A model generated the notes under the pieces. That model saw only the letters and a program-made list of their open reading frames with translations. It was not told the DNA's origin and made no database searches. Below, in pieces: positions 1-15,587 of a stretch of DNA of 34,159 bases (positions within the stretch are counted from its first letter, which is position 1; every line of letters begins with the position of its first letter). The DNA is taken from the NCBI GenBank assembly GCA_900555125.1, contig USKH01000001.1:1-34159 (forward strand). The letters are read 5' to 3'. The translations under genes were made by a program, and so were the position numbers. This DNA is from an uncultured Clostridium sp. (GTDB lineage: Bacteria > Bacillota > Clostridia > Christensenellales > Pumilibacteraceae).

Positions 1-1254
1 CTCAACATGGACGTCGACGGGTACGGTTCGTTTGAACGCGACGTCAAGATTAAAGACCGCGACTACGCAATCGGAGGAGAAGAAACCTTCAGACAATGGG
101 TTGTGGGCAAGTATAAACAGGGAGATCTTCGTCTCGAACTGAAAGAAGACCGATCCTTCTCTCTGGATAAAATCACGTACGTCGAAGAAGAGCAGGAAAT
201 CGACGTAACCAAGGAAGACGGAACGGTTGTCAAAGAAAAACACGTCGTTAAAAAACAGAAAAAGGAAAACGTCGAAAAAGGAACGTACACCGCGTCCTAT
301 TGCGCAGCCGGGAAAGACGTCGTTATTAACGAAAACATGAACGAGTTGCAGGTTTCCCGCGGCGAAAGCTACAATATAAGACTGTTTACCAACGACGGAG
401 AACTTGCTACTTCTACAAGCTACCGCGTTGCCGGAGCGGGCGAAAAACTGGGCGCAATTCTTGGCGGATACTTCACATGGATAGGTAATCTTTGCCGCGG
501 CGACCTCGGTAACAGCTTCCTGTACGAAAAACCGGTTTCTCAGGTTATAAGCGAAAACATGTGGATTTCGTTTGCAATAGCAATCGTCGCAACCATATTG
601 CAGTTTTTGATAGCAATTCCGCTCGGCGTGTCTTCCGCAACCCATCAGTATTCGGTGCGCGACTACGCCGTCACGGTATTCACCATGATAGGTCTTGCGC
701 TTCCGACGTACTTCTTTGCGGCAATCGCTATAAAAGTATTTGCAGTGGACCTCGGATGGCTGCCTGCAAACGGTCTGGTTGACGCAAACAAGACTTATCT
801 GCCAACATTCGGAGATACGATGGCAAAAATCGGAGATATGGCACTTCACCTCGTTTTGCCGATATTTGTCAGCGTCATTCTCTCTCTGGGCGGACTTATG
901 CGCTATACGCGTACAAATACTCTCGAAGTGCTTAACGCCGACTACATTCGTACGGCACGCGCAAAAGGCCTTTCGGAAAAAACGGTTATTTACAAGCACG
1001 CTTTCCGTAACACTCTTATTCCGCTTGCAACGCTGCTTGCCGGCATTCTGCCGTCGCTTTTCGGCGGTATGATGATTACCGAGCAGGTGTTCGGTATCAA
1101 CGGTATCGGTAACCTGGCGTACAAAGCACTAAAACAAGCAGACATTCCCTTCGTCATGGGATACAACATGTTCCTGGCGATATTGACGGTCACCGGAACG
1201 CTGTTCTCGGATATCATGTATTCGATAGTCGATCCGCGCGTCAAACTCTCCTGA
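1..1254 (+). CDS. oppB: Peptide/nickel-type ABC transporter permease (OppB/DppB family); 5' end cut by the window edge
   Basis: The frame is open from nt 1. The M at nt 7 in the ORF track is probably internal, because the N-terminal TM1 that this family always carries is missing from the window. The C-terminal ~250 aa show the family pattern: loop motif WIGNLCRGDLGNSF, five hydrophobic helices, and EAA-type loop ADYIRTARAKGLSEKTVIYKHAFRN. Stop is TGA at 1252-1254. Opp versus Dpp/App cannot be decided from sequence alone. Confidence 0.85.
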   Translation, partial: LNMDVDGYGSFERDVKIKDRDYAIGGEETFRQWVVGKYKQGDLRLELKEDRSFSLDKITYVEEEQEIDVTKEDGTVVKEKHVVKKQKKENVEKGTYTASYCAAGKDVVINENMNELQVSRGESYNIRLFTNDGELATSTSYRVAGAGEKLGAILGGYFTWIGNLCRGDLGNSFLYEKPVSQVISENMWISFAIAIVATILQFLIAIPLGVSSATHQYSVRDYAVTVFTMIGLALPTYFFAAIAIKVFAVDLGWLPANGLVDANKTYLPTFGDTMAKIGDMALHLVLPIFVSVILSLGGLMRYTRTNTLEVLNADYIRTARAKGLSEKTVIYKHAFRNTLIPLATLLAGILPSLFGGMMITEQVFGINGIGNLAYKALKQADIPFVMGYNMFLAILTVTGTLFSDIMYSIVDPRVKLS

Positions 1255-1269
1255 TAAAGGCGGTGCGAA

Positions 1270-2379
1270 ATGGAAGATAAAAACGAATTGAAAGAAGTCA
1301 TCGTTTCCGAAGACACCGCTATGACGGACGTTATTCACGAAAACGAAAAAACTCAATCGCAGGTCGAGCTTCAGGCTGAAGCCAAAGCGGCGGAAGAAAT
1401 AACTTATAAGGAAATAAGCCCCGCAAGGCTTATTCTGCGCAGATTTTTCCGCTCGAAGCTGTCCATCGTCGGCATAATAATGCTGGTGTTTTTGTTCGCG
1501 TTCTCATTTTTAGGACCGGTTGTCTACAACAAGTGGGAGCCGGATATCCCCGACAGCACGCCCACCATCAACACCTATTATTATACAGTCAAAACGGAGA
1601 TGCCGGACGGTACCACTGTCACCGTTATCGAGCAGCTGCAACAGGAAAGCCCCACCAACGCGTACGCGCCGCTGGACGGCAATCACATTCTCGGTACCGA
1701 CGATAAAGGTATGGACGTGTTCGTGCGTCTTATGTACGGCGGAAGAATTTCGCTTGCGATAGGATTTATAGTCGTAATTCTGCAAACGCTTATCGGCGTG
1801 GTATTGGGCGGTATTGCCGGCTACTACGGAGGCTGGGTAGACCAGATTATAATGCGTATAGTTGATATTTTCAACTGTATTCCCACGCTTCCGATACTGC
1901 TTATTGCCTCCGCGGTCATCGATTCGTGGCAGGTAACCGCCGACCAGCGTATTTATATACTCATGGTAATGATAACTCTGTTCAGCTGGAGCGGCACGGC
2001 TCGACTGGTTCGCGGTCAGATATTGTCGCTGAGAGAACAGGAATACATCACCGCAACCGAGGTTATGGGTTATTCGACGGCAAGAAGAATATTCAAACAC
2101 CTCATTCCCAACGTAATGCCGCAGCTTATTGTTTCCATGACGCTGGGATTGGGCAGCGTAATTCTGTACGAATCCACTTTAAGCTACCTTGGCTTGGGCG
2201 TTCAGCTCCCGAAGGCTGCATGGGGAACCATGATTGCAACGGCAAACGATCCGCAGGTGCTTAATTATCATCTTAATATGTGGTTGCCGGCAGGTCTTAT
2301 GATAGTCGTAGCCGTACTCGGATTCAATTTCGTCGGCGACGGTCTGCGTGACGCAATGGATCCAAAAGCGAGGAAGTAA
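1270..2379 (+). CDS. oppC: Peptide ABC transporter permease (OppC/DppC family)
   Basis: An acidic N-terminal tail is followed by TM1 (IVGIIMLVFLFAFSFLGPVV). Family motif HILGTDDKGMDVFVRLMYGGRISL is present, as is the EAA loop EYITATEVMGYSTARRIFKHLIPN. Purine-rich AAGGCGG lies just upstream of the ATG, 15 nt after the oppB stop. Confidence 0.88.
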   Translation: MEDKNELKEVIVSEDTAMTDVIHENEKTQSQVELQAEAKAAEEITYKEISPARLILRRFFRSKLSIVGIIMLVFLFAFSFLGPVVYNKWEPDIPDSTPTINTYYYTVKTEMPDGTTVTVIEQLQQESPTNAYAPLDGNHILGTDDKGMDVFVRLMYGGRISLAIGFIVVILQTLIGVVLGGIAGYYGGWVDQIIMRIVDIFNCIPTLPILLIASAVIDSWQVTADQRIYILMVMITLFSWSGTARLVRGQILSLREQEYITATEVMGYSTARRIFKHLIPNVMPQLIVSMTLGLGSVILYESTLSYLGLGVQLPKAAWGTMIATANDPQVLNYHLNMWLPAGLMIVVAVLGFNFVGDGLRDAMDPKARK

Positions 2380-2382
2380 GTC

Positions 2383-3543
2383 ATGAAAAAAGAAAGCAAT
2401 TACATTTCCATGAGCGAAAGCCGCAAAATACGGAAGTACAACATCAAGCAGATGCGCTACTACGAAAAGCAGAAACGTCGTAAATGCAGCGAGGATGAAT
2501 ATATCACTACCATGCGCGACGAAAACAACGTAGTGGAAATCGATAATCTCGAAACCTGCTTCTTTACCGACAACGGGACGGTTACTTCGGTTCACGGAGT
2601 GTCGTTCGACATACCCAAAAATAAAATAGTCGGCGTCGTCGGCGAGTCCGGTTGCGGGAAAAGCGTGACTTCGCTGTCCATCATGCAGCTTGTTCAGGCA
2701 CCGCAGGGACAGATAGTGGGCGGATCCATCCGCTTCAACACCGATCAGCTCGGATACGACGAAAACGGCAATAAGCTTGCCTACGATATAGTAAAAATGC
2801 CCACCGCCGCTACCTATAAGGTGCGCGGAAAGGACGTTACCATGATATTCCAGGAACCCATGACCAGCCTTAATCCCGTGTTTACGATAGGGTATCAGCT
2901 GGACGAAGTTTCCTTTTTGCTCGATCCGATGATAGGAAAGGAAGCCGCAAGGGAATATTCGATAAACCTTTTGAGAAAGGTTGGAATTTCCATGCCGGAA
3001 CACACCTACAAGTGTTACCCGCACGAACTTTCCGGCGGCATGCGCCAGCGTGTTATGATAGCAATGGCACTTGCCGGTAAGCCTAAGCTGATAATCGCCG
3101 ACGAGCCCACTACCGCGCTCGACGTTACCATTCAGGCTCAGATTCTCGAGCTTCTCCGCGATTTACAAAAGCGCGAGGGTTGCTCCATTATGCTTATTAC
3201 GCACGACCTCGGCGTTATTGCCGAAATGGCAGACGAGGTTGTCGTTATGTATGCCGGCAGAATTATCGAAAAAGGTACCGTTCAGGAAATATTCCACAAC
3301 CCGATGCATCCGTACACAATCGGATTGCAAAAGAGCAAGCCGCTTGTCACTTCCGACAGCAACGAGCCGCTGTATTCCATTCCCGGACAGGTGCCCAACC
3401 CCATCAATTTGCCCGACCATTGCTATTTCCGCAATCGCTGCGAAAGATGTATAGATAAGTGCAAGGGTAAATACCCCGAGTTTATTAAAGTAAGCGATAC
3501 GCACTACGTATCCTGCTACCTGTACGAAAAGGAGGGCGATTGA
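2383..3543 (+). CDS. oppD: Peptide ABC transporter ATP-binding protein (OppD type) with a basic ~45-aa N-terminal extension
   Basis: Walker [10 protein letters not shown]-loop IFQEP, signature LSGGMRQR, Walker [14 protein letters not shown]-loop ITHDL. The C-terminal oligopeptide-ATPase extension carries a Cys cluster ([15 protein letters not shown]...SCYL). GAGGAAG lies ~10 nt upstream of ATG 2383. The internal Met at 2512 has no RBS. Confidence 0.9.
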
Positions 3544-3544
3544 C

Positions 3545-4726
3545 ATGGACGAAATCAAAAACGAAAGCGTAGAAACCAACGCTTCGGACAAAGAATTTCT
3601 TAAAGTCGAAAACCTGAAAAAGTATTTCGTAATCGAAAAAAGCCTGTTCGGCAAGCCGCTTCGCTATCTCAAAGCAGTGGACGACGTGTCCTTTACGCTT
3701 GAAAGAGGTAAAACCATCGGCGTTGTCGGCGAGTCCGGCTGCGGAAAAACCACGCTGGGAAGAACAATATTAAAACTGTACGAGCCCGACGGCGGCAAAA
3801 TCTTTTTCGAGGGGCAGGAGCTTACGCATCTCAAAAAGAAAAAAATGCGTCGTTTCCGTACCGATATGCAGCTGGTTTTTCAGGATCCGTACTCTTCGTT
3901 GCCGCCCCGTATGACGGTGGGAAGCCTTATCGAAGAAGGCGTGAAAGTGCATAAAGTCGTGCCCAAAGAACAGGTGCACGACTACGTAATGGACATCATG
4001 AAAAAATGCGGCTTGCAGCCTCAGTATTACGACCGTTACCCGCACGAGTTTTCCGGCGGTCAGCGTCAGCGTATCTGCATTGCCCGCGCGCTTGCGGTTA
4101 AACCCAAGCTGGTCATCTGCGACGAACCTGTTTCCGCGCTCGACGTGTCCATTCAGGCGCAGATAATCAATCTTCTCAAAGAACTTCAAAACGATATGGG
4201 ACTGACGTACGTGTTTATTTCGCACGATCTGTCGGTCGTAAAATATGTAACCGATTCGGTACTTGTAATGTATCTCGGCAATATGATGGAAAAGGGAAAC
4301 ACGGACGAAATATTCCGCAATCCGCTTCATCCGTACACCAAGGCGTTGTTCTCGGCGGTGCCCGTCCCCAATCCGGACGTAAAAATGCACCGTATCATTC
4401 TGGAAGGAGATATTCCGTCTCCCGCCAACCCGCCCAGAGGTTGCAAATTTCACACGCGTTGTGCGCAGTGCATGAACGTGTGCAAGTTTGTTCCGCCTCG
4501 TTATGCCGAAGTAAAACCCGAGCATTTTGTCGCATGCCACCTGTATGACGAGGAAATTATGAACAATCTCGCTTCGTACGACGAACAATGGGAACAGATG
4601 GAACGCGATCGCATAGCTGCCGAAGCCGCCGCTGCCGAAAAGAAGTTCAAAAAGAACAGAGACAAACAGGCGGCTCAGGCGGAAGCCGAAAAGAAAGCCG
4701 AACAAAACGACGTCCATGAAGAATAA
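3545..4726 (+). CDS. oppF: Peptide ABC transporter ATP-binding protein (OppF type) with an Ala/Glu/Lys-rich C-terminal tail
   Basis: Walker A GESGCGKTT, signature FSGGQRQR, Walker B LVICDEPVSALD, H-loop ISHDL. C-terminal Cys motif CKFHTRCAQCMNVC...ACHL. AAGGAGGG at 3529-3536 precedes the ATG, which lies 1 nt after the oppD stop. Confidence 0.9.
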   Translation: MDEIKNESVETNASDKEFLKVENLKKYFVIEKSLFGKPLRYLKAVDDVSFTLERGKTIGVVGESGCGKTTLGRTILKLYEPDGGKIFFEGQELTHLKKKKMRRFRTDMQLVFQDPYSSLPPRMTVGSLIEEGVKVHKVVPKEQVHDYVMDIMKKCGLQPQYYDRYPHEFSGGQRQRICIARALAVKPKLVICDEPVSALDVSIQAQIINLLKELQNDMGLTYVFISHDLSVVKYVTDSVLVMYLGNMMEKGNTDEIFRNPLHPYTKALFSAVPVPNPDVKMHRIILEGDIPSPANPPRGCKFHTRCAQCMNVCKFVPPRYAEVKPEHFVACHLYDEEIMNNLASYDEQWEQMERDRIAAEAAAAEKKFKKNRDKQAAQAEAEKKAEQNDVHEE

Positions 4727-4955
4727 GGACGTCAAAAAAAAGAATAAAAGGGCGTTCGTTGACGACGGCCGCACCGTTTACGATATGAGTTGTCTCAATC
4801 CTGACGGAAAAAAAGATAAGGAGCCGATCGGGTTATCCCGCAAGGAAAAACACGCGGCTATAAGGGCGGCACTGTTGGTTTACGGGCGCATTTTTCTTAT
4901 CATTCTGGGGTCGTTTGCCGTTGTCGGAGCTCTTTTATGGCTTTGGCTTAAATAA
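4716..4955 (+). CDS. Small (79 aa) tail-anchored membrane protein, function unknown
   Basis: The ATG overlaps the last 11 nt of oppF, which suggests translational coupling; there is no independent SD. The N-terminal half is Lys-rich and a single C-terminal hydrophobic helix follows (IFLIILGSFAVVGALLWLWL). Codon usage looks like that of the neighbouring genes. No family recognised. Confidence 0.55.
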   Translation: MKNKDVKKKNKRAFVDDGRTVYDMSCLNPDGKKDKEPIGLSRKEKHAAIRAALLVYGRIFLIILGSFAVVGALLWLWLK

Positions 4956-5043: not shown

Positions 5044-5058
5044 AAGTTTATGAAAATT
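5044..5058 (+). promoter_or_regulatory. CodY-box-like 15-mer
   Basis: AAGTTTATGAAAATT matches the AATTTTCWGAAAATT consensus at 13 of 15 positions. It lies 23 nt upstream of the -35 hexamer. Confidence 0.3.
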
Positions 5059-5080: not shown

Positions 5081-5109
5081 TTGACCGTATGCCTTTTTAT
5101 ATTTATAAT
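5081..5109 (+). promoter_or_regulatory. Sigma-A type promoter of the protease-LRR gene
   Basis: TTGACC (5081-5086), exact 17-nt spacer, TATAAT (5104-5109). The RBS and ATG 5138 lie ~15-30 nt downstream. Confidence 0.7.
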
Positions 5110-5137
5110 AGCGCCATACGGAAAAGGAGTTACATTT

Positions 5138-8100
5138 ATGCGTAAGAAAATTATAGCTATTTTATTATGTGCGGCAATGCTTTCGGGCGTTGCGGCTTGC
5201 GCAGCCGGCAAGAAAGACGGCGGAACGGTTAGTACCGCGTCTACTCAGCTTATGGTTTTGCGCACCGACTACAAATTCTCTCAGGAAGAAGTAGCTTCGC
5301 GTATCAAAGCCGAATACCTTAAGGCGAACAACGGATATAAGGACGGCGACGTAATAGTAGCAATCATTACTCTGCCCGGCAAAAGCCTTGCCGATACCTG
5401 GCTCGAAGGCAGCAAATATTCCACGTTAGCCGAATATGCTCAGTCACCCGAAGGCGTTTATCAGGCGTCCGTAATCAAGAAAAACCAGGACGGACTTATC
5501 GCCGAGCTGACCGAAAAAGGTCTTATTACCGGCGTTAAGTATCGCTACGACACTCTTACAAACGCCGTCGCTGTTACAACCACTTACGGCGGATTTAAAA
5601 AGATAGGAGACAGCGGCAGAGTAGCTTCGACGTACCTCAGCGACACTTACAATCGTCCCAAGTCCGAGAAAGCGGGCGGTGCATCCGGCATCGTCAACCT
5701 CGTCGACGTGTACGAAACCGGTATTTTCAACTCCGGCAGCGTAAGCTATACGGGTAAAGGAACCTCGGTTGCCGTTCTCGACTCCGGTTTCGACCTTTCG
5801 CACCCGGTATTTTCCACCATGCCCGACGTGGAGGACGACAAGCTTACCGTCACCCGCGACAGCGTTTCCGCCGTTCTTTCGGCATCCAATGCCGCAAAAA
5901 CCACCAAAGGGTTGGAAATAAACGACGTTTACGTAAACAACAAAATTCCTTATGTATACGATTACGCAGATAAAGATTACGACGTATTCCCGTACGATTC
6001 CGAGCACGGCACTCACGTTGCCGGTATCATCGGCGGCAAAACGCCCGACAGCGCAAAAACCGAAACCGAACAGGGTATTGTAGGCGTTGCCGTAGACACT
6101 CAGATAGTTTGCATGAAGGTTTTCCCCGACCTTACCGAAGGCGGTAAAACCGAAGACATAATAGCAGCGGTAGAAGACGCAGTTCTTCTCAACGTAGACG
6201 CAATCAACATGTCGCTGGGTTCTTCCTGCGGATTTGCCCGCGAAGAAGACGGCAGCCTTATAAACGCGGTATATGATAAAGTAAACGCTTCCGGCGTAAG
6301 CCTTATAGTTGCCGCAAGCAACAGCTACAGCTCCGCACAGGGCGGCGAACAGGGTAATACCGCGTTTACCACCAACCCCGACTACGGCACCGTAGGCTCG
6401 CCTACAACGTACGCGGCGGCAACTTCGGTTGCGTCCATCAGCGGCGTTAAGAGCAGATATTTCGTTGCAAACGACAAAGACGTCGTATTCTGGACCGAAT
6501 CCAGCTCCACCGCAGCCAAGAAAAACGATTTCTACAAAGAATTGTACGAGGCTATGGGCTGGGACGTCAACGATAAAGAAGAACATACTCTCGAATACGT
6601 CACCGTTCCCGGCGTGGGACTTAAAGTCAACTATTCCAGCATAAATGTAAAGGGCAAAATAGCGCTTGTCCGCCGTGGAGACAGCTCATTCGAAGACAAA
6701 GCTTTGCAGGCAAAAGCAGCCGGAGCGATCGGTTGTGTCATTTACAACAACGTCGAAGGTAACATCAGCATGTCTATGGGTAAAACCGAACACGTGCCCA
6801 CCATTTCCATTTCAAAGGAAGACGGAACCGCGCTCGCAGCATACGCAAGCGGTAAACTTACCTTCTCCGCCGACGACCAGGCAGGTCCGTTCATGTCCGA
6901 CTTCTCCAGCTGGGGACCTTCGCCCAACCTTGAACTCAAACCCGAAATAACCGCTCACGGCGGCGACATCAAGTCGGCTATTCCCGGCGGCGGATACGAT
7001 CAGCTGTCCGGAACCAGCATGGCTTGCCCCAACCTTTGCGGCATCGCCCTGCTTATCCGTCACTACGTAAAAGATAATTTCAAAGACATCGCAGGCAACG
7101 CAAAAGAAGTAAAACTGATGACCAACCGTCTGCTTATGTCCACCGCAACCATCGCTCTCGACCGCTACGGCATAGCTTATTCGCCCAGAAAACAGGGAGC
7201 GGGACTTGCCAGCCTTAAAAAGGTTGTAAGCACCGGCGCATATATCGAAGTTCCCGGTTGCGAGAAAACCAAGCTCGAACTTAAAGACGATCCCACTCGT
7301 ACGGGCGTTTACGAAATGAACTTCAACGTCGTAAACGTATCCGACAAAGATATTCATTACGATCTCAGCGTACTCGGTCTTACCGACGAAATATCTTCTT
7401 CCGACGAACGCTTTGTTTCCGAAAGAGGAAAGTTGCTGTCCGGTTCGATGAAGCTCGAAAGCACAACCGCCGGCGCAGTAAACGGCACTACGCTTACCGC
7501 AAAAGCAGGCGAAACCACTGCCGTTAAACTTACTTACAGTATTTCCGACGCCGACAGAACCTATATTGAAAGATATTTTACCTACGGAACTTACGTCGAA
7601 GGCTTTGTCAAGCTGGAAACAACCGATAAAAATTCGGCAGGCGAAAACGAAGTAAGCCTTAACGTGCCTTTCCTCGCTTTCTACGGCGACTGGACCGAAG
7701 CTCCTATGTTCGATAAGGACTACTACCAGGTGGACAAGGACAAAAACGACGCTTCGCTCGACGAGGACGATAAAGTAAAAGCCGACTATTACGCAACCAC
7801 CCCGTACGGAACTTATTTCTACAACTATATAATTCCGCTCGGCACCTACCTGTATGATATCGATACCGATAAATACGATAAAATAGTGGCTTCGCGCGAT
7901 CATATCGCAATATCCGATTCGTTAGGAACGATAAGCGGATTGTCAACCATTTATGCCGGACTGCTGCGCGGGGCAAAAACCATGGACTTCACCATCGTGG
8001 ATAAAACCACCGGCGAAGTAGTGTGGAGCAAAACCGAAGTCAACGCAAGAAAAGCTTATTCCAACGGCGGCTCGCCCGTTCCGTATTTCAATCAGCTTAA

Positions 8101-11100
8101 ACTCAGCTCCAAGGAATTGGGACTGGTGAACAACCGTACTTATCAGTTCAAGATGGTAGGAAAACTCGATTACGGTGACGGCGGAGTAGCTACCAATGCC
8201 AACAATTCGTTTGAGTACGACTTTGTTCTCGATAACGAAGCACCCATGATTAAGAGCTGCACGTACGAAAAAGTGTACGATAAAGCACTTAAAAAGGATC
8301 GTTATTATATAAACATGGTGGTCTACGACAATCAGTACGTTATGTCCGTATCGCCCGTTTTGTTCACTTCAAACAATTCGTATACCACGCTTACTAAAAA
8401 CGCGATCCCCGTTTATTCGCAGAAGGGAACCGACAATAAAGTAAGAATTGAAATAACCGACTATCTCGAAAACGTCGGATACGACAAACTTCTTTCCGGA
8501 TCGCTTGCGTTCTCCGTAGACGACTATGCGCTTAATTCCAACATTTTCGTCTGCCAGTTGCCCGGAACCGCCGGCGAAATCAAATTCACCAAAGACGGCG
8601 AATGGGACAGCCCCGCGCTCAATATTCTGTCCGTATACGAGGACGAAGTAGTAGATCTCACCGATAAACTTGCTACCGCCGACGAAAACGTGGACGAAAA
8701 CAAGGATTATCTCAGATATCTCAAATGGGAAAGCTCCAATCCCGCAATAGCGGAGGTGAAAGACGGTCTGGTTAAGGGAATAAAACCCGGCAGAGCAACT
8801 ATTACGGCTACCAGAAACGGCGTTGTTTCACAGGAATCTCTCTCTTCGCATCAGGCAATGATAATAATCAACGTCAAGAAGAGAACAACCGCAACGCAAA
8901 GTCTTGCCGCTCAAACCGAAGAAACTGTTGTAAGAAGTAAAGCCCCCGCTTCGGAGGGAGAAGTCACCGTTATGTCCAATAACGGAGTGAACAACGCAAA
9001 CGACGCTTCGGTTAAATCGTTGCGCTTTGCTTATTTCGATACTCTGTTTGCATACAGCAGAGCTGCCGGCACCAGCGAAATAGGAAAAACGGGTGAAAGA
9101 AAATTCATCACCGCTGTTTCCGGGTCGGTTAAAATGTATCCGGGCGAAAGAATTCAGCTTGCCTGCGACATGGATCCGTGGTACGTTGCCGGCAAATATG
9201 AAATGTCGTATCAGACCAGCAACGAAGCTATCGCAAAAGTAAATCAGGACGGTACCGTAACCGCGATGAAGGAAGGCTCGGTAACCATTACCGCTTCGCT
9301 TTCCGGCTCCAACATAAAAGCTCGTTTCAGAATAAACGTTCAGAATCCGTTTATAGTCGAAAACTACGTGCTTGTGTCCTATAAAGGATATGTCGAGAAC
9401 GGAGTAGTCGAAATCCCCGAAGAGGAAGGCGTGCTGTACATCGGAGCGTATGCGTTCTGTCTGTACACCACCGACAACACCATCGAAGTGGACGAGGACG
9501 ACTACGACGCAAACAAAATTCCCGCATCCAACAGCTCCGTTAAAAAGGTAATAGTGCCCGATACGGTGGAAGAAATCAGAAAATATGCATTCTACAATTG
9601 CACCGGACTGGAAGAGGTAGAACTCAAAGGCGAAGTAAAATACCTGCGCGAATATGCCTTCTCCGGCGACGCCAAGCTGAAAAAAATCAACCTCGGAAAT
9701 GTGGAAGTAATAGGTAAAAACGCATTTTACGGATGCACTTCGCTTACTTCTCTCGACCTTAACAAGTGTTATTCCATCGGCGAAGCCGCTTTCCAGGGCT
9801 GCACCGGGCTTACCACCGTCGACCTTTCCAAACTGCGCAATGCGGGCAAGGAAATGTTCAAAAACTGTACAAATCTCAAAAGCGTTGTACTCGGACCGCA
9901 CACCAAGCTGTCATACGGCGCGTTTGTAAAGAGCGGACTTACTTCCGTCGATCTGTATGCAAACGTCGTTCCGCAGTTTGCTTTCGCTCAGTGCAACGAC
10001 CTTAAAAAAGTGGTTATCCACAACGATATGCTGTATATCGATAAGGGAGCGTTCTGCCAGAACCCCAATCTCGAAACGGTTGAACTGCTCGGCAAAATCG
10101 AACTTATCGGCGAACAGGCGTTCTACGATTGTCCCTCGCTTAAGAAAATCAAACTGCCCGGCGGAAAGGTTACCATAGGGCTTAACGCGTTCTACAACTG
10201 CAATAATCTCGAAGAAATAATTATCCCCGCCGATCTCGAAAAGTTATCCTTTGTCGGCAGCGGTTTCCGCGCCACCGGCGTGAAGAAATTCACCGTCGAG
10301 GCGGGAAATAAGAACTTTACCACCAACAACGAAGGCACCATGCTGTATTCGGACGGAGGAAAGAAACTTATAGCAGTTGCTTTCGGGGCAGTAACCGGCG
10401 ACGTCACAATTCCCGCAGAAGTTCAATCTATAGGAGCGGGTGCGTTCGGCGGCACCGCAATCACCTCGGTAACCTTCCTCAATCCCGATATCAAAATCGG
10501 CGACTATGCATTCGCAAACTGCGATTCGCTTGAAAAAGCGACCTTCGCGGCAGGCGGAAAAGCAGTAACCGGTATTCGTTCGTTCTATGCAGACGACAAA
10601 CTCACCGTCGTCGAAAACATGCAGTATATTGCCGAAATAGGCGACTATTCGTTTGCCGCTACCTCGGTTGCCGAAGCCAATATCGGCGACAACGTAATAT
10701 GCGGCGAAGGCGCGTTCTTCAACGGCAAGGTCACCGTCGCAACCGTAGGCGAAAACGTAAAGCTCGGTTTGGGTGCTTTCCAGAACTGCAAAAAGCTTGT
10801 AAAAGTAAATATGCCCGATAAAGGCGGCGTTCACATAGGCAAGTATTGTTTTGCTTATGCCACCGAACTTAAAGAAATCGACCTTAGCAAAACAGACGAC
10901 AGACTGGAAGAAGCGGCATTCTTCAACTGTACCTCTCTTAAAAAGGCAAACCTCGTAAACGTCAAGTATATCGAAGGATATGTGTTTGCCGATTGCGCAA
11001 AGCTGGAAGAAGTACTCGTTCCCGCCGTTGTCGAAATCGGTCAGGGTGCGTTTGCCAAGTACGAACAGGAAAGCGGCGCGGCTCCGAGATTTACCGAAAT

Positions 11101-12805
11101 CGTCCTGCCCGAAACGCTTACTAAAATCGGCGACGGCGCGTTTGCTTCGCAGACTTCGCTTGAAAACGTAACCCTCCCCGCTTCGCTTACCGCAGAAAAT
11201 ACGGGCTCGCATGTGTTTTATATGTGCTCGGCTCTCAAAACCGTTGTTCTGCCCGAAACGCTTACCAAAATAAACGAAAACACTTTCGCGGGATGCACTT
11301 CGCTCGAGAGCGTAAACCTCGGTAACGTAAAAGTTATCGCGGACAACGCGTTCAACACCTGCACCTCGCTGAAAAACATCGACCTGACTTCCGCCGAGGA
11401 AGTGGGCTACGCCGCATTTGCGTTTGTTCCCGCTCAGGGCGAAATCACCGCAAACAACCTCAAAAAGATAGGCGCGTACGCGTTCGAGCGCGACGATGCA
11501 AAGGGCGGACCCACGTTTACTTCTTTCACCGCAAACAAGCTGGAAGAAATAGGCGAAGGCGCGTTCTGGAACGTCAAAACGCTTAAAAAATTCGTATTCA
11601 CCGAAAATCTTAAAAAGGTAGCAATGGCTGCGTTCCTCGAATGCGACGGCATCGAAAGCTTCTATTTCCTGTCGGAAGGCAAGGAAGTTGCCGACGGCGA
11701 ATTTGCAAATGCCGCAGTATATGAAGGAAGCTTGTATATGCGCGCCGAAAACGGCAAATGGATACTTTCTTCCGTTCCCGGAGGAAAAACCGGAACACTC
11801 AACGTCAAGGAAGGAACGGTAAAAGTCGAAGTTTATGCAGGCAGCATGAACAAAAACATCACCGAAATAGTCTTCCCGATGAGTCTTAAATCTATCGGTA
11901 AAATGGCGTTCTATAAATGCGACGCATTGCAGAAAGCGGAATTCCGCTCGCTCAACGCACCCACGCTTGAAAACGAGAACGTCAGCGGCGTTACTCTTGC
12001 CGAAACCGATCCCGGCTACAAAAAACTTTATTCGCAGTATCAGCTGTTCGGACTGGATATGTGCTATATGAACTTTGTAGACCTTCTGGGAAAGAAAGAG
12101 CCGCTTAAAATGGTGGTTCCGTCCAACGCAAACATATCCGGCTACGATTCTATAGTGTACGAAGTGTATTTCGGAGAACTTAAGGACGCCGAAAGAAGCT
12201 CGTTCGTCGCAATGGAAAACAGCATGGCTAAGTTCATCGAATACGCCGAAGAGATTATGAAAAAGGAAGTTCTCACCATGGCGGACGAAACGTTGGTCAG
12301 CGACGCCGTAACCGCTTACAACGGAATCAAGGGCGATTACACGCAGTTCGGATACGACAAAGAAACGTGGGACGCAATGGTAAAAGCTTCCACCGACGCA
12401 TACGCATATATCAGGAAGCTTAAATTCTCTCACGCAAGCTATAAAGTTAAACAGTTGCAAGCAGAAATCGATTCGCTTGCCGGCGAATACGACAAGAATA
12501 AGGTTCCCACCATGGAAGATATTCAGGCAAAACTGAAAAACTTTACGCCCGCGGAAAGAGAAGTGCTTGACCTCACTGCTTACAATCAGTTCTTCTCCGA
12601 GTACGAAAAGCACAAAAACGATCCCGATAATCCCGATAAGCCCGATCCCAAGCCCGACGATCCCAAGCCCGACACGCCCGACGAAAACAAGTCGTGCGGC
12701 AACTGCAAGAGTAAAACCGGGTACGACGCGGCAGGCGCAATGATGTCCGTAATCGTTCTGGCAGGAGTTGCGTTCATTCTGAAAAGAAAGAACAATATCG
12801 GCTGA
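5138..12805 (+). CDS. Giant (2555 aa) lipoprotein: S8 subtilisin-like cell-envelope protease (PA insert, Fn3_5-like) fused to 2 Big_2 domains, ~30 BspA-type LRRs, a Pro-rich stalk and a C-terminal TM anchor
   Basis: Start moved from the ORF-track TTG at 5072 to ATG 5138. AAGGAG at 5124-5129 lies 8 nt upstream, and the promoter at 5081-5109 lies inside the TTG extension. The N-terminus MRKKIIAILLCAAMLSGVAAC is a signal peptide plus lipobox. Catalytic motifs: VAVLDSGFD (Asp codon 5780), HGTHVAGII (His 6005), GTSMACP (Ser 7016). PA-type insert GKIALVRRGDSSFEDKALQAKAAGAIGCVIYNN at ~6650-6750. Fn3_5-like YVEGFVKL...PFLAFYGDW at ~7230-7700. Big_2-like segments at ~8640-8880 and ~9100-9350. Recurrent IGxxAFxxCxxL units at ~9360-11960. 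Confidence 0.9.
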   Translation: MRKKIIAILLCAAMLSGVAACAAGKKDGGTVSTASTQLMVLRTDYKFSQEEVASRIKAEYLKANNGYKDGDVIVAIITLPGKSLADTWLEGSKYSTLAEYAQSPEGVYQASVIKKNQDGLIAELTEKGLITGVKYRYDTLTNAVAVTTTYGGFKKIGDSGRVASTYLSDTYNRPKSEKAGGASGIVNLVDVYETGIFNSGSVSYTGKGTSVAVLDSGFDLSHPVFSTMPDVEDDKLTVTRDSVSAVLSASNAAKTTKGLEINDVYVNNKIPYVYDYADKDYDVFPYDSEHGTHVAGIIGGKTPDSAKTETEQGIVGVAVDTQIVCMKVFPDLTEGGKTEDIIAAVEDAVLLNVDAINMSLGSSCGFAREEDGSLINAVYDKVNASGVSLIVAASNSYSSAQGGEQGNTAFTTNPDYGTVGSPTTYAAATSVASISGVKSRYFVANDKDVVFWTESSSTAAKKNDFYKELYEAMGWDVNDKEEHTLEYVTVPGVGLKVNYSSINVKGKIALVRRGDSSFEDKALQAKAAGAIGCVIYNNVEGNISMSMGKTEHVPTISISKEDGTALAAYASGKLTFSADDQAGPFMSDFSSWGPSPNLELKPEITAHGGDIKSAIPGGGYDQLSGTSMACPNLCGIALLIRHYVKDNFKDIAGNAKEVKLMTNRLLMSTATIALDRYGIAYSPRKQGAGLASLKKVVSTGAYIEVPGCEKTKLELKDDPTRTGVYEMNFNVVNVSDKDIHYDLSVLGLTDEISSSDERFVSERGKLLSGSMKLESTTAGAVNGTTLTAKAGETTAVKLTYSISDADRTYIERYFTYGTYVEGFVKLETTDKNSAGENEVSLNVPFLAFYGDWTEAPMFDKDYYQVDKDKNDASLDEDDKVKADYYATTPYGTYFYNYIIPLGTYLYDIDTDKYDKIVASRDHIAISDSLGTISGLSTIYAGLLRGAKTMDFTIVDKTTGEVVWSKTEVNARKAYSNGGSPVPYFNQLKLSSKELGLVNNRTYQFKMVGKLDYGDGGVATNANNSFEYDFVLDNEAPMIKSCTYEKVYDKALKKDRYYINMVVYDNQYVMSVSPVLFTSNNSYTTLTKNAIPVYSQKGTDNKVRIEITDYLENVGYDKLLSGSLAFSVDDYALNSNIFVCQLPGTAGEIKFTKDGEWDSPALNILSVYEDEVVDLTDKLATADENVDENKDYLRYLKWESSNPAIAEVKDGLVKGIKPGRATITATRNGVVSQESLSSHQAMIIINVKKRTTATQSLAAQTEETVVRSKAPASEGEVTVMSNNGVNNANDASVKSLRFAYFDTLFAYSRAAGTSEIGKTGERKFITAVSGSVKMYPGERIQLACDMDPWYVAGKYEMSYQTSNEAIAKVNQDGTVTAMKEGSVTITASLSGSNIKARFRINVQNPFIVENYVLVSYKGYVENGVVEIPEEEGVLYIGAYAFCLYTTDNTIEVDEDDYDANKIPASNSSVKKVIVPDTVEEIRKYAFYNCTGLEEVELKGEVKYLREYAFSGDAKLKKINLGNVEVIGKNAFYGCTSLTSLDLNKCYSIGEAAFQGCTGLTTVDLSKLRNAGKEMFKNCTNLKSVVLGPHTKLSYGAFVKSGLTSVDLYANVVPQFAFAQCNDLKKVVIHNDMLYIDKGAFCQNPNLETVELLGKIELIGEQAFYDCPSLKKIKLPGGKVTIGLNAFYNCNNLEEIIIPADLEKLSFVGSGFRATGVKKFTVEAGNKNFTTNNEGTMLYSDGGKKLIAVAFGAVTGDVTIPAEVQSIGAGAFGGTAITSVTFLNPDIKIGDYAFANCDSLEKATFAAGGKAVTGIRSFYADDKLTVVENMQYIAEIGDYSFAATSVAEANIGDNVICGEGAFFNGKVTVATVGENVKLGLGAFQNCKKLVKVNMPDKGGVHIGKYCFAYATELKEIDLSKTDDRLEEAAFFNCTSLKKANLVNVKYIEGYVFADCAKLEEVLVPAVVEIGQGAFAKYEQESGAAPRFTEIVLPETLTKIGDGAFASQTSLENVTLPASLTAENTGSHVFYMCSALKTVVLPETLTKINENTFAGCTSLESVNLGNVKVIADNAFNTCTSLKNIDLTSAEEVGYAAFAFVPAQGEITANNLKKIGAYAFERDDAKGGPTFTSFTANKLEEIGEGAFWNVKTLKKFVFTENLKKVAMAAFLECDGIESFYFLSEGKEVADGEFANAAVYEGSLYMRAENGKWILSSVPGGKTGTLNVKEGTVKVEVYAGSMNKNITEIVFPMSLKSIGKMAFYKCDALQKAEFRSLNAPTLENENVSGVTLAETDPGYKKLYSQYQLFGLDMCYMNFVDLLGKKEPLKMVVPSNANISGYDSIVYEVYFGELKDAERSSFVAMENSMAKFIEYAEEIMKKEVLTMADETLVSDAVTAYNGIKGDYTQFGYDKETWDAMVKASTDAYAYIRKLKFSHASYKVKQLQAEIDSLAGEYDKNKVPTMEDIQAKLKNFTPAEREVLDLTAYNQFFSEYEKHKNDPDNPDKPDPKPDDPKPDTPDENKSCGNCKSKTGYDAAGAMMSVIVLAGVAFILKRKNNIG
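9360..11960 (+). repeat. About 30 tandem BspA-type leucine-rich repeats (coding)
   Basis: Units of 23-25 aa carry (I/V)G..AF..C..L..(V/I).L, for example IGKNAFYGCTSLTSLDL and IGEAAFQGCTGLTTVDL. Near-identical DNA strings recur (VLPETLTKIG / VLPETLTKIN at ~11101 and ~11245). Confidence 0.85.
12644..12673 (+). repeat. Perfect 2 x 15-nt tandem repeat in the Pro-rich stalk
   Basis: GATCCCAAGCCCGAC occurs twice in direct succession (encoding DPKPD DPKPD), within a wider CCCGAT/CCCGAC-rich tract at 12614-12685. Confidence 0.9.
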
Positions 12806-12896
12806 CAAAAAAACAACGTCGCGGCTGTCGCGACAAAAGAAAGCGGAATAAAGAATGTTTCGCATGACATAAAAACCACCGGGTAAGCTTGCTGTG

Positions 12897-12924
12897 TTTG
12901 CAATCGTGCCCGCAGGTTTTATAA
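12897..12924 (+). promoter_or_regulatory. Possible promoter of the 865-aa lipoprotein gene
   Basis: TTGCAA (12897-12902), 16-nt spacer, TATAAG (12919-12924). Weaker than the other promoters in the window. Confidence 0.3.
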
Positions 12925-12989
12925 GAGAGATTTTTTCTCTTGCGGCATACCGCTTGGTCATTATTCAGACAAAACAGGAGGCAGAAAAC

Positions 12990-15587
12990 ATGAAAAGATT
13001 AAAAGCAATAACGTCTTTACTTGTCGCGCTTGCGCTCGGAATATTATTTTTCGCATGCGCGCCGACAAACAACGGTAAAAAGCTTGATACCCCGCAAAAC
13101 GTCGTTTGTACGGATGACGGTATAATTTCGTGGGACGCCGTCGAAAACGCCGCAGAATATGTCGTTGTCGTCGACGGAGTAAACTATACGGCAAAAGGCA
13201 CGACTTTTAAAGTAATCAATACGAGCCGCGACTACGAATATTCGGTTTACGCTACGGCTGAAGGATATACTCCTTCCGACCCCAGCCCCGTAAAAAAAGG
13301 TAAAGCGTACGAGATAAAAGGAACGCTTGCCGCTCCGCAAAACGTTGCAATAGACAAAACCGGGCTTATTACCTGGGATGTCGTCGAAAACGCCGAAAAA
13401 TATACGGTAGTTATCAACGGCACCGAATATACCGCCGAAACCAATAGTTTTACGGCTCCGTCCACTGACGACGATTTCAGCGTTGTTGTGTATGCGCAGG
13501 CGGCTCATTATAAAAAATCGGCTCCGTCCACCGAAGTAAGTTTTGCCGGACTGGGTAAAATTACCGTGTCCGTTAAAGCGGAAGGAAATCTGTACAGCGG
13601 AAAAACGCTTACGCTCACCGCAACCGTAACAGGCGCGTTTGGCGACGATTCGGTTTGCTGGAGTATCGTAAACGGACTTGAAAATGCCGAAATAGATAAA
13701 GACACCGGCGTTATTACCGCCAATATCGTTTCCTCCGACACGAGCGTTACCGTCCGCGCAACCAGCAACCTTAATCCCGCCAAGTACGATGAAAAAGTAA
13801 TAAACGTGATTGCCCGTCCCGCGCTGACCGAAGACATGCTTTCCGAACTTGCCGCGGCAGACAAAGTGGCTTTCGAAGGGTATATGAGCATCGATTTGTA
13901 CCAGCTCGGACTGGTCGAAAAGTATTACAATTCGTTCAAATATGTGATTAAAACGGCAATGGACGGAGAATACTGGTATTCGCAGTACGTCAGCCCTTCC
14001 ACGGGTCTTACCACCGGACTTTATTATAAAAATCAGAACGGAATCGCATCTATGGTAAGCGTTGACTTAATGAACGAGGAACACTATACTCCGCTTACCG
14101 ACGAAAAAGAGAAGGCGATCAGCTGGGAAGAAAGCGGATTTTACAATCCTTTCAAAGGACTTTCGGTTTCCGATTTTACTTTCGACGAGGATGAGTGGAA
14201 ATACCGATACACAGGCAAAGACGAAACGTTGCCGGCACGCATGATAGCGGCGTCCGATCCGTACGATTTTGTCCCGTCCGAAGTTTATCTTATGATAGAA
14301 GACGGCGCGGTTGCGGGAATCTACTCGGTTGCCGAGCCCAGCTATACGGTAGCGGCAGGTTATGTCGCATACAATACCCTCAACGCAGCCGTAAACTACG
14401 GCGACGACGTGGAAGTGGAAAAAATCGCCAAATATTCGCATGAAAGCCGATATGACGAGTATTATTCGAAGTTTGCCGAGGCAATCGAAAACATGAAAAA
14501 CCTCGATAGCTACGAAACCACTTTTGTTAATTATCAGTCGGTTGCCGGCAGCTCGCCGAAAATCAGCGGCTATCGCGAATACCTGACCGAAAACGATTGT
14601 TATTTCAAACCGTTTACGATTACCGCGCGTGACGATGAAGGAAATTACGTTTACAATTATACCGGAGCGGATTACGGTTACAGACAACTCGGAAAAGAGT
14701 TTTATAACGCTTATTCCAAGTCTGTCGATAAAGAAGGAAACGTGAAATGGAAGGCAAATCGCGCGTACAGAAAAGATTTTGCCTCTGCCAGACCGAGCTT
14801 TGCGTTTTCCGGGGAGATTTTCCGCACCATTATTTACGATCCCGAAAAACCGGACACCGTAACTTTTGTTGCCGATATCGGCATGACCAACGTCGCCAGT
14901 ACGCTTTTCTACGGAATGGGCAACGAAATCAACTTATACGGACTGTTTGCAACCGGCTACAACATATTCGGCAATCCGCTTGAAACCGAACTCATAACCA
15001 ATGTAACTATAGAAAACGGATATATTACAAAAGCTCAGTTTTATTATTATTTCGATTATTTTTACGGTATTGTCGAACTGACTTACGGCGGTTTTAATCA
15101 GACCGTTCTGCCCGAAGAAGCAAAAACAGTAAACTTTGAGACAAGAGAAGTCCCGTCAAGCTGGGCAGATCCGTCGTTGTTTATAAGCGTTGCGCCCGAG
15201 GATTCGTCGATTATCACCGACTACGTTGAAAAACCCCTTCCCGAATACCTCGAAAAATTCTTCGGCAGCAAACAGACCGCGGACGAAATGCCTTTCTTCG
15301 GAATTCCGCTCGGCGATTCGTTCGGATTTTCCATTCAGTCTTCAAAAGTCCCGGGCGGAACGCATTACGGCATTCCCGCAATCACGTTCTATTACGATGT
15401 GCCGCTGGACCTCGATCTTACCATCGATTCGTCGTTAAACGCCGTTAAAGAATATCTTTTGTCGCTCGGTTACGAGAGAAACGCGTACGGCGAATATGTA
15501 AAAGGCGATATTACGATAAAAGCGGAGAGCGTTGATCTCGATCTCAACATTTATGTGTGGAAAACGCCGTCCGAAGAGGAAAAATAG
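12990..15587 (+). CDS. Lipoprotein (865 aa): 2 Fn3-like repeats + Big_2 domain + ~590-aa uncharacterised domain
   Basis: Start moved from GTG 12894 to ATG 12990, with AGGAGG at 12976-12981 (8-nt spacing). MKRLKAITSLLVALALGILFFAC is a signal peptide with a lipobox-like Cys. An 81-aa tandem repeat carries PQNV..WD.VENA.(E/K)Y.VV..G..YTA. Big_2-like segment LTLTATVTGAFGDDSVCWSIV...VTVRATS. The remainder has no motif I can name. Confidence 0.85.
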   Translation: MKRLKAITSLLVALALGILFFACAPTNNGKKLDTPQNVVCTDDGIISWDAVENAAEYVVVVDGVNYTAKGTTFKVINTSRDYEYSVYATAEGYTPSDPSPVKKGKAYEIKGTLAAPQNVAIDKTGLITWDVVENAEKYTVVINGTEYTAETNSFTAPSTDDDFSVVVYAQAAHYKKSAPSTEVSFAGLGKITVSVKAEGNLYSGKTLTLTATVTGAFGDDSVCWSIVNGLENAEIDKDTGVITANIVSSDTSVTVRATSNLNPAKYDEKVINVIARPALTEDMLSELAAADKVAFEGYMSIDLYQLGLVEKYYNSFKYVIKTAMDGEYWYSQYVSPSTGLTTGLYYKNQNGIASMVSVDLMNEEHYTPLTDEKEKAISWEESGFYNPFKGLSVSDFTFDEDEWKYRYTGKDETLPARMIAASDPYDFVPSEVYLMIEDGAVAGIYSVAEPSYTVAAGYVAYNTLNAAVNYGDDVEVEKIAKYSHESRYDEYYSKFAEAIENMKNLDSYETTFVNYQSVAGSSPKISGYREYLTENDCYFKPFTITARDDEGNYVYNYTGADYGYRQLGKEFYNAYSKSVDKEGNVKWKANRAYRKDFASARPSFAFSGEIFRTIIYDPEKPDTVTFVADIGMTNVASTLFYGMGNEINLYGLFATGYNIFGNPLETELITNVTIENGYITKAQFYYYFDYFYGIVELTYGGFNQTVLPEEAKTVNFETREVPSSWADPSLFISVAPEDSSIITDYVEKPLPEYLEKFFGSKQTADEMPFFGIPLGDSFGFSIQSSKVPGGTHYGIPAITFYYDVPLDLDLTIDSSLNAVKEYLLSLGYERNAYGEYVKGDITIKAESVDLDLNIYVWKTPSEEEK
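13083..13551 (+). repeat. 2 x 243-nt tandem Fn3-like coding repeat
   Basis: LDTPQNVVCTDDGIISWDAVENAAEYVVVVDGVNYTA... aligns with LAAPQNVAIDKTGLITWDVVENAEKYTVVINGTEYTA... The period is 81 aa (13083 and 13326). Confidence 0.85.

Follow-up and report, generated by a model that had tools for sequence, protein, structure and literature searches.

The window analyzed here, a stretch of 34,159 nucleotides (nt) from an uncultured Clostridium sp. (contig USKH01000001.1), contains a gene for a surface protein of 2555 amino acids (aa) that joins an S8-type protease to a long leucine-rich repeat (LRR) region. We interpret this S8-LRR protein as a membrane-anchored cell-envelope proteinase (CEP) of the PrtP/C5a-peptidase type that probably feeds the adjacent oligopeptide importer Opp, and we put the probability of this reading at roughly 60%. 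The CEPs of lactic acid bacteria act together with Opp. Nutritional proteolysis is favored over host targeting because the adjacency of the gene to an oligopeptide ABC importer and to giant lipoproteins is conserved. The preliminary description of this DNA, made from the sequence alone, had already proposed a PrtP/C5a-peptidase-type S8 protease and a BspA-type LRR solenoid within a single polypeptide; domain searches and homologs confirmed that both belong to one intact protein. The gene and its N-terminal module of about 1200 residues are organized as follows.

5138-12805, + strand: S8-LRR protease gene, a single long open reading frame (ORF) with ATG 5138 as best start and a product of 2555 aa
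5138..5200, + strand: lipoprotein signal peptide with lipobox (MRKKIIAILLCAAMLSGVAAC), residues 1-21, reading ...LSGVAAC21 with Cys21 at its end
5201..5722, + strand: prodomain, residues 22-195, assigned from the topology of the AlphaFold2 (AF2) model
5753..7204, + strand: Peptidase_S8 catalytic domain, residues 206-689 (Pfam E 8e-39)
6617..6835, + strand: PA domain between the catalytic His and Ser, residues 494-566 (Pfam E 1.6e-17)
7301..7672, + strand: Fn3_5 domain (PF06280), residues 722-845 (Pfam E 1.7e-7), followed by YGDW at residue 849
7673..8692, + strand: further beta-sandwich domains, residues 846-1185, equivalent by Foldseek to the distal Fn3 domains of ScpA/SpyCEP

The catalytic motifs appear in the order Asp-His-Ser, with D215 (VLDSG), H290 (HGTHVAG), the oxyanion-hole residue N395 (AASNS) and S627 (GTSMA), and these four residues are invariant in all 121 full-length sequences compared (the query and 120 homologs). 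The interpretation as a pseudo-protease was rejected on this ground, and the substituted catalytic residues that had been named beforehand as a possible refutation were found in none of the 121. The PA insert aligns to the PA region of PDB entry 7edd, and PF06280 is precomputed for most homologs. The Asp/His/Ser motifs, the PA insert that separates His from Ser, the Fn3_5-like segment with YGDW and the further beta domains had all been recognized from the letters and were recovered by Pfam and by Foldseek matches to ScpA/ScpB/SpyCEP. The same holds for the lipobox, with the Cys21 column occupied by Cys in 118/121 sequences of the alignment including the query.

In sequence searches, residues 202-885 match C5a peptidase and SpyCEP with E values of 1e-66 to 1e-55. 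For comparison of folds an AF2 model of residues 22-1200 was calculated from a 41-sequence alignment, with a predicted local distance difference test score (pLDDT) of 67.5 and a predicted template modeling score of 0.58; part of the beta-sandwich stretch, at about residues 860-985, has low pLDDT. Using Foldseek against the PDB, this model matched ScpB (8bty, E 7e-48), ScpA (7bj3, 3eif) and SpyCEP (7edd, 6vjb, 5xyr), each in an alignment of more than 1000 columns; the identity to ScpA/ScpB is about 21%. By these matches, the first 1200 residues represent a complete C5a-peptidase/CEP-type module.

The prodomain core (residues 71-167, nt 5348-5638) adopts a beta-alpha-beta-beta-alpha-beta order in the AF2 model with a pLDDT of 83-90. 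It is followed by the conserved motif SDTYNRP(Q/K), in which T170, N172 and P174 are invariant in the homolog alignment, and by a disordered linker (residues 170-194). The I9-like propeptide noted in the preliminary description is thus retained in part: the predicted topology of residues 71-167 supports it, but a Pfam scan of the prodomain for I9 gave no match, and the likeness to I9 is that of the modeled topology alone.

The module and its LRR arm recur together. A search of a collection of 5.8 billion proteins yielded 2736 proteins at E<=1e-10; all of the best 120 clusters, which were examined, are full-length (95-100% query coverage, 2425-2626 aa, 49-99% identity) and carry the same Pfam set of S8, PA, fn3_5, Big_2 and LRR_5. 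Since it recurs full-length in all 120 best clusters, the architecture is not a product of chance. The few named members originate from metagenome-assembled genomes (MAGs) of Clostridia and are called only "leucine-rich repeat protein" or "hypothetical protein". With the protease module alone, an exhaustive HMMER search against 1.84 billion representatives of 50% identity clusters gave more than 150 clusters; the best 150, which were examined, are mostly 2250-2900 aa long with identities down to 34%, and three distant members with 34-36% identity retain S8, PA and LRR_5. Among the GTDB species genomes, one per species, a pattern scan picked out at least 574 candidates that encode a relative. 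The fusion, which had first been regarded as chimeric and unusual, is therefore very common, and it is old and stable because the closest relatives of the S8 module essentially all carry the LRR arm. The possibility of a misassembly or chimera, which had been raised for the region ~8600-9400, was rejected: the ORF has its full length in all 120 best clusters and in the majority of the 80 loci, which were assembled independently, and it runs continuously in dozens of assemblies. The LRR region is free of nucleotide-level tandem repeats, and the usual cause of assembly errors is thereby removed.

The best 80 stretches of the pattern scan were studied as related loci. Nearly all encode full-length proteins with 38-63% identity; the MAGs in question come from the guts of chicken, goat, sheep, rabbit, deer and human. 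Their taxon labels include the Christensenellales-type names Ca. Neoclostridium, Gallimonas, Limihabitans and Fimimonas as well as RF39/"Mollicutes"/Bacilli (CAG:324, CAG:698, CAG:288), Acholeplasmatales and Anaeroplasmataceae. Between these loci (L001-L080) and the window, across the Clostridia/Christensenellales and Bacilli/RF39 labels, the S8-LRR proteins are 54-61% and the Opp proteins 65-82% identical. The identity matrix is star-like without class separation, and only an Anaeroplasma-type clade stands apart at 39-43%. Horizontal transfer between the classes would explain these two identity ranges and the missing class separation; the star-like matrix reflects either such transfer of a cassette or unreliable taxon labels. 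On contig JAFQFT010000058.1, a Bacilli MAG, two paralogous S8-LRR genes (L053 and L076) each have their own opp genes. One copy is of the type followed by lp2-lp4, and the other is of the Anaeroplasmataceae-label type with opp downstream, which shows that a single genome can hold both subfamilies. Two S8-LRR copies are likewise present in CALCWU01 (L011, L058).

The importer that would take up the products lies immediately upstream of the protease gene, and four lipoprotein genes and a block of housekeeping genes follow it.

7..4726, + strand: oppB (cut by the window edge), oppC, oppD and oppF (NCBIfam Opp4B, Opp4C, OppD, OppF)
4716..4955, + strand: 79-aa membrane ORF that overlaps the end of oppF by 11 nt, precedes the protease gene and has a hydrophobic helix at its C-terminus
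12990-15587, + strand: lp2, lipoprotein gene with lipobox, 865 aa
15813-18479, + strand: lp3, lipoprotein gene with lipobox, 888 aa
18541-23076, + strand: lp4, lipoprotein gene with lipobox, 1511 aa
23218-29100, + strand: lp5, lipoprotein gene with lipobox, 1960 aa
29197-34024: housekeeping genes at the right end, namely a TetR-family regulator (- strand), genes of spmB/spmA-like membrane proteins (- strand), metG (+ strand) and a tatD-like hydrolase gene (+ strand), named from their translations

Synteny was determined by tblastn of the window proteins against the 80 related loci. The genes oppD/F were detected in 64/80 and oppB/C in 58/80 of them, nearly always directly upstream of the protease gene, and the loci without an opp match are mostly contigs that end too early. 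In L081/L082 (protein P0009) an M28 peptidase gene on the other strand comes first; a Flg_new gene, an 877-aa OppA (SBP_bac_5), OppB-C-D-F, an 87-aa ORF, the protease and three giant lipoproteins follow in this order. The 87-aa ORF occupies the position of the 79-aa ORF of the window, for which no family match was found. In the Anaeroplasmataceae-labeled locus L064 the genes are permuted but adjacent (two Flg_new giants, protease, Flg_new protein, OppA, OppBCDF); the assignment of oppA is by Pfam in L081/L082 and in L064. L001 (Ca. Neoclostridium roslinense), the species representative closest to the window, carries an ORF of 880 aa in the place of oppA, then oppBCDF and the protease. In this locus lp2-lp5 are missing, and the protease runs straight into tetR-spmB-spmA-metG-tatD. 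Since L001 carries the right-end gene set of the window directly after the protease, the lp2-lp5 block represents an insertion/deletion difference. Downstream of the protease lp2 was found in 53/80, lp3 in 52/80, lp4 in 51/80 and lp5 in only 7/80 loci. The invariant association is that of protease and Opp; the giant lipoproteins are frequent but dispensable.

The oppB frame is open to the left window edge (1-1254, + strand), with no stop codon before nt 7. OppB comprises 486 aa in L001 (3869-5329), compared with 307-320 aa in L081/L082, and the NCBIfam OppB models cover only residues 151-413 of the OppB fragment in the window. This suggests that the first loop of OppB contains a large, probably extracellular insertion similar to that of MMSYN1_0165, a mycoplasma OppB model.

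The likeness of the head to streptococcal proteases also brings to mind a different role, that of a host-directed colonization or immune-evasion factor, whose head would cut C5a, CXC chemokines, IgA or mucin and whose LRR arm would act as an adhesin for host cells or matrix. C5a peptidases and SpyCEP are the best matches both in sequence and in fold, the LRR region resembles PcpA and TpLRR with a partial match to the HupY/LrrG adhesin model, and the source genomes are all gut-associated. However, the linkage to OppABCDF and the nearby M28 peptidase fit nutrition better, and the identity to ScpA is as low as noted above. In addition, the architecture is fixed over chicken, goat, rabbit, deer and human hosts, and the repeat number is not diversified, as would be expected of surfaces under selection for interaction with a host. 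We therefore regard a host-directed function as unlikely.

The C-terminal half of the protein consists of the following parts.

8693..9352, + strand: two Big_2 domains and a poorly conserved linker, residues 1186-1405 (Pfam E 6e-16 on a sub-fragment, two stretches)
9395..11962, + strand: BspA-type LRR_5 solenoid of ~30-32 units, residues 1420-2275 (Pfam LRR_5 E 7.5e-130)
11963..12619, + strand: C-terminal mixed and helical domain, residues 2276-2494 (AF2 pLDDT 84-90), with helices at 2361-2493 (pLDDT ~85)
12620..12688, + strand: Pro/Asp/Lys-rich stalk, residues 2495-2517, with PDKPDP from residue 2499; disordered, low pLDDT
12728..12805, + strand: C-terminal transmembrane (TM) anchor, residues 2531-2548, a hydrophobic helix (also in AF2) with a KRK stop-transfer sequence and the stop codon

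The preliminary description had listed two Big_2 domains, about 30 LRR_5 units, a helical segment, the PDKPDP stalk and the TM anchor, and all of them were found again by Pfam, sequence inspection and AF2. A hidden Markov model built from the protein's own units identified 29 clear LRR units, and about three more degenerate ones were counted. The solenoid is interrupted by 'N..F..dG.LY' segments near residues 1724-1750 and 2190-2215. In an AF2 model of residues 1400-2555 (pLDDT 88.4) one long LRR solenoid (pLDDT >90) is followed by a mixed/helical domain, a disordered stalk and a terminal helix. The best PDB matches of the solenoid in both fold and sequence are uncharacterized LRR_5 surface proteins of gut bacteria (4fs7, 4h09, 4gt6), PcpA and TpLRR.

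Across 121 orthologs the length of the LRR segment is nearly constant, with a median of 855 aa and a standard deviation of 13 aa, which corresponds to about half a repeat. This sets the protein apart from those adhesins whose repeat number varies, and the near-constant length points to a constrained geometry; a fixed number of repeats fits a defined partner and a scaffold equally well. In the 121-sequence alignment the mean identity to the query is 0.47 for the prodomain, 0.67 for S8 and PA, 0.60 for the Fn3 region, 0.49 for the Big_2 region, 0.46 for the LRR and 0.42 for the C-terminal helical domain; between the Big_2 domains, at residues 1251-1300, conservation falls to 0.22. Within the repeats some non-scaffold positions flanking the AF motif are conserved at 0.69-0.72, and per-position conservation is otherwise accounted for largely by scaffold residues, a pattern that does not decide between a conserved concave face and a scaffold.

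These data bear on the question whether the LRR arm of a nutritional proteinase binds anything. As a ligand-free, rigid spacer of fixed length it could, together with the helical domain and the stalk, stand in for the B/H/W spacers of PrtP where cells have a thin wall or none, and could hold the catalytic head outside the surface layer. Such a function is consistent with the almost invariant length, the position of the LRR between catalytic head and membrane anchor, its lower identity relative to the catalytic region (0.46 and 0.67) and the predominance of scaffold residues among the conserved repeat positions. On the other hand, a solenoid of 860 aa would be a costly spacer in reduced genomes, and some positions beside the AF motif are unusually well conserved. 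LRR_5 domains are generally protein-binding modules, which is a further point against a ligand-free arm. We consider a pure spacer possible but rather doubtful.

The C-terminal helical domain is conserved across the family in the alignment, and a Pfam scan of it gave no match apart from the last LRR_5 unit (2244-2266), with which the scanned fragment starts. Length and composition of the stalk vary among homologs. The gene contains a single repeat at the DNA level, a 15-nt unit repeated perfectly in tandem (2.1 copies, CGATCCCAAGCCCGA) at 12643-12673 on the + strand, which encodes part of the PDKPDP stalk and is a likely source of the variation in stalk length. Between stalk and TM helix a CGNC motif is located (residues 2520-2523, 12695-12706, + strand). 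The close relatives P0002, P0004 and P0006 share it, P0048 and P0058 have variants of it that contain Cys, and most others lack it. The TM helix with a basic tail was seen at the C-terminus of nearly all of 30 sequences inspected. No LPXTG motif is present at the C-terminus, and at the N-terminus the lipobox replaces a type I signal.

The lipoproteins encoded downstream show little relation to known families. Pfam matches in lp2-lp5 were restricted to fragments of Ig-like, Big_2, Big_3 or Flg_new domains, and PDB sequence searches with lp2, lp3 and lp4 gave nothing informative. The products of lp2 and lp3 are distantly related paralogs that share 24% identity (E 3e-12). Their genes follow that of the protease, with lp4, in 51-53 of the 80 loci, and the lipoboxes of all lp products imply a surface location shared with the protease. 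This arrangement would be compatible with a dedicated processing enzyme that matures or sheds OppA or the giant lipoproteins lp2-lp5 and does not digest bulk protein. Yet L001 and the Anaeroplasma-type loci keep the protease without detectable lp2-lp4, and the CEP-type architecture with PA and Fn3 is typical for enzymes acting on exogenous proteins; a maturase is in our view very improbable.

The size of these adhesin-like lipoproteins, which share a locus with protease and importer, would also suit contact-dependent feeding, in which the LRR arm and the giant surface proteins attach to a microbial or host cell, the protease digests the surface of that cell and Opp imports the products. The carrier lineages have small genomes and a minimal metabolism (PMC10868615), and for UBA1242, a Christensenellales family with reduced genomes, an obligate symbiotic or parasitic lifestyle has been proposed (PMC12306168). 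The UBA1242 genomes, however, were reported to be without peptide transporters (PMC12306168) and are thus probably not carriers, and free digestion of luminal protein explains the gene set equally. Feeding by contact appears quite improbable to us.

We return to the CEP that feeds the Opp importer, for which the following sequence of events can be proposed. The protein would be exported via its lipoprotein signal and lipidated at Cys21. The I9-like prodomain of ~175 residues would aid folding and then be removed autocatalytically near SDTYNRP(Q/K), within residues 172-195, and the mature enzyme would be kept on the cell by the C-terminal TM helix. Stalk, helical domain and the rigid, fixed-length solenoid of ~30 LRR units would form an arm between the membrane and the catalytic head. 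The S8/PA/Fn3 head would cut extracellular dietary, host or microbial proteins into oligopeptides, which OppA may bind and OppBCDF may import. Most likely the LRR arm would capture or position protein or glycoprotein substrates, or dock the co-encoded giant lipoproteins. We infer proteolytic activity, the autoprocessing site, the nutritional role and any ligand of the LRR arm from the combined data. As precedents, PMC13374181 presents the cell-envelope proteinases of lactic acid bacteria together with Opp, and in PMC6495380 S. aureus is reported to require opp3 when it grows on host proteins by means of proteases.

Several points weigh against this interpretation. The gene has a promoter-like site of its own, and adjacency alone is no proof of a common function. 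The nearest relatives of solved structure, ScpA/ScpB and SpyCEP, are host-directed virulence proteases and not nutritional enzymes. The LRR arm could be purely structural, and the lack of lp2-lp5 in L001 shows that the lipoproteins are not obligatory partners. Finally, a maturase of the PrtM/PrsA type (rotamase) was found neither among the window genes scanned with Pfam and NCBIfam nor in L081/L082.

In a more far-reaching, speculative form of the proposal, the whole locus of 25-30 kb (OppA-BCDF, the small membrane ORF, the S8-LRR protease and three or four giant lipoproteins) would be one protein-harvesting surface machine and the main nitrogen route of amino-acid-dependent uncultured gut Firmicutes (Christensenellales, RF39, Anaeroplasmataceae). 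The LRR arm would then dock the partner lipoproteins or a specific macromolecular or cellular target, and the cassette would have moved horizontally between Clostridia and Bacilli. This extension we consider doubtful.

The start region of the gene contains two recognizable signals.

5081..5109, + strand: promoter-like sequence TTGACC-17-TATAAT, 11/12 matches to the consensus, identified by consensus match only
5120..5140, + strand: ribosome-binding site GGAAAAGGAG (5120-5129) and start codon ATG (5138), identified from the sequence

The start at ATG 5138 agrees with the N-termini of homologs in the alignment. Ribosome-binding site, start position and full-length relatives indicate that the ORF 5138-12805 of 2555 aa, as first described, is real. 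Because no terminator was found on the + strand between oppF and the protease gene, read-through from oppF is possible. Regulation of the CodY type as in lactococci was considered and rejected, since no such site was found in the 250 nt preceding the gene in any of 57 related loci. Only one sequence in the window resembles a CodY box (AAGTTTATGAAAATT, 2 mismatches; 5044-5058, + strand). It directly precedes the promoter-like site; chance alone would be expected to yield about 2.35 such sites over the window, and this one is probably a chance match. Large antisense ORFs inside the gene (e.g. 10244-12961, minus strand, 905 aa) were regarded as artefacts of the long sense ORF, and an Rfam scan of the window gave 0 matches.

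Literature searches on the combination of S8 with LRR_5, and on protein degradation by RF39, Christensenellales and Anaeroplasma, turned up no description of this family, in line with the preliminary description, although papers beyond the searched literature are possible. The architecture is thus widespread in sequence databases, experimentally uncharacterized and has a plausible role. Its carriers are abundant gut lineages with almost no cultured representatives that are described as metabolically reduced, and a surface protease tied to a peptide importer offers a hypothesis for how they obtain amino acids. For cultivation this would provide a lead, namely the supply of intact protein or of defined oligopeptides. 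The current names "leucine-rich repeat protein" and "hypothetical protein" hide what is probably an active protease.

With ScpA/ScpB and SpyCEP the protein shares an S8 domain with PA between His and Ser, the Fn3-type domains that follow and, as predicted from the model, an N-terminal prodomain. The streptococcal enzymes have 1100-1650 aa, a type I signal, an LPXTG sortase anchor and no LRR, whereas the window protein has a lipobox, an additional ~1350 aa (Big_2, LRR_5, helical domain and stalk) and a C-terminal TM anchor. ScpA/ScpB and SpyCEP act on specific host immune peptides; the context of the window protein, in contrast, is an oligopeptide importer. The NCBIfam model of the SGO_0316/0317 LPXTG peptidase gave only 226 bits with a cutoff of 1400.

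The BspA-type proteins (Tannerella BspA, Treponema LrrA/TpLRR, pneumococcal PcpA, HupY/LrrG of group B Streptococcus, and the structural-genomics proteins 4fs7, 4h09 and 4gt6) belong to the same LRR_5 family and are likewise located at the cell surface. They act on their own as adhesins or ligand binders, have ~6-16 repeats and lack an enzyme domain, whereas the window protein carries ~30 units behind a protease, with an almost invariant repeat number and an LRR arm about twice as long as those of characterized BspA-type proteins. The NCBIfam model for HupY/LrrG reached 128 bits (cutoff 1250). A solenoid of 30 LRR units with a length that is constant across hundreds of species represents a new accessory module for a protease.

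For PrtP, PrtB, PrtH and PrtS the proposed logic would be the same by analogy: a surface S8 protease with PA insert and an A (Fn3-like) domain would deliver oligopeptides to Opp, and the pre-pro regions of the PrtP-type enzymes and the window protein are of similar size. PrtP differs by its B, H and W spacers, its LPXTG or S-layer-type anchor and its maturase PrtM, none of which was seen in the window protein or its locus. In lactococci prtP and opp do not form one locus, whereas the S8-LRR gene adjoins opp in most related loci. With a lipobox and a C-terminal TM helix in place of a sortase motif, the protein would extend the paradigm of the cell-envelope proteinase beyond lactic acid bacteria and streptococci. 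Taken together, the proposed mechanism resembles that of the PrtP-type CEPs, and the fold resembles that of streptococcal ScpA and SpyCEP.

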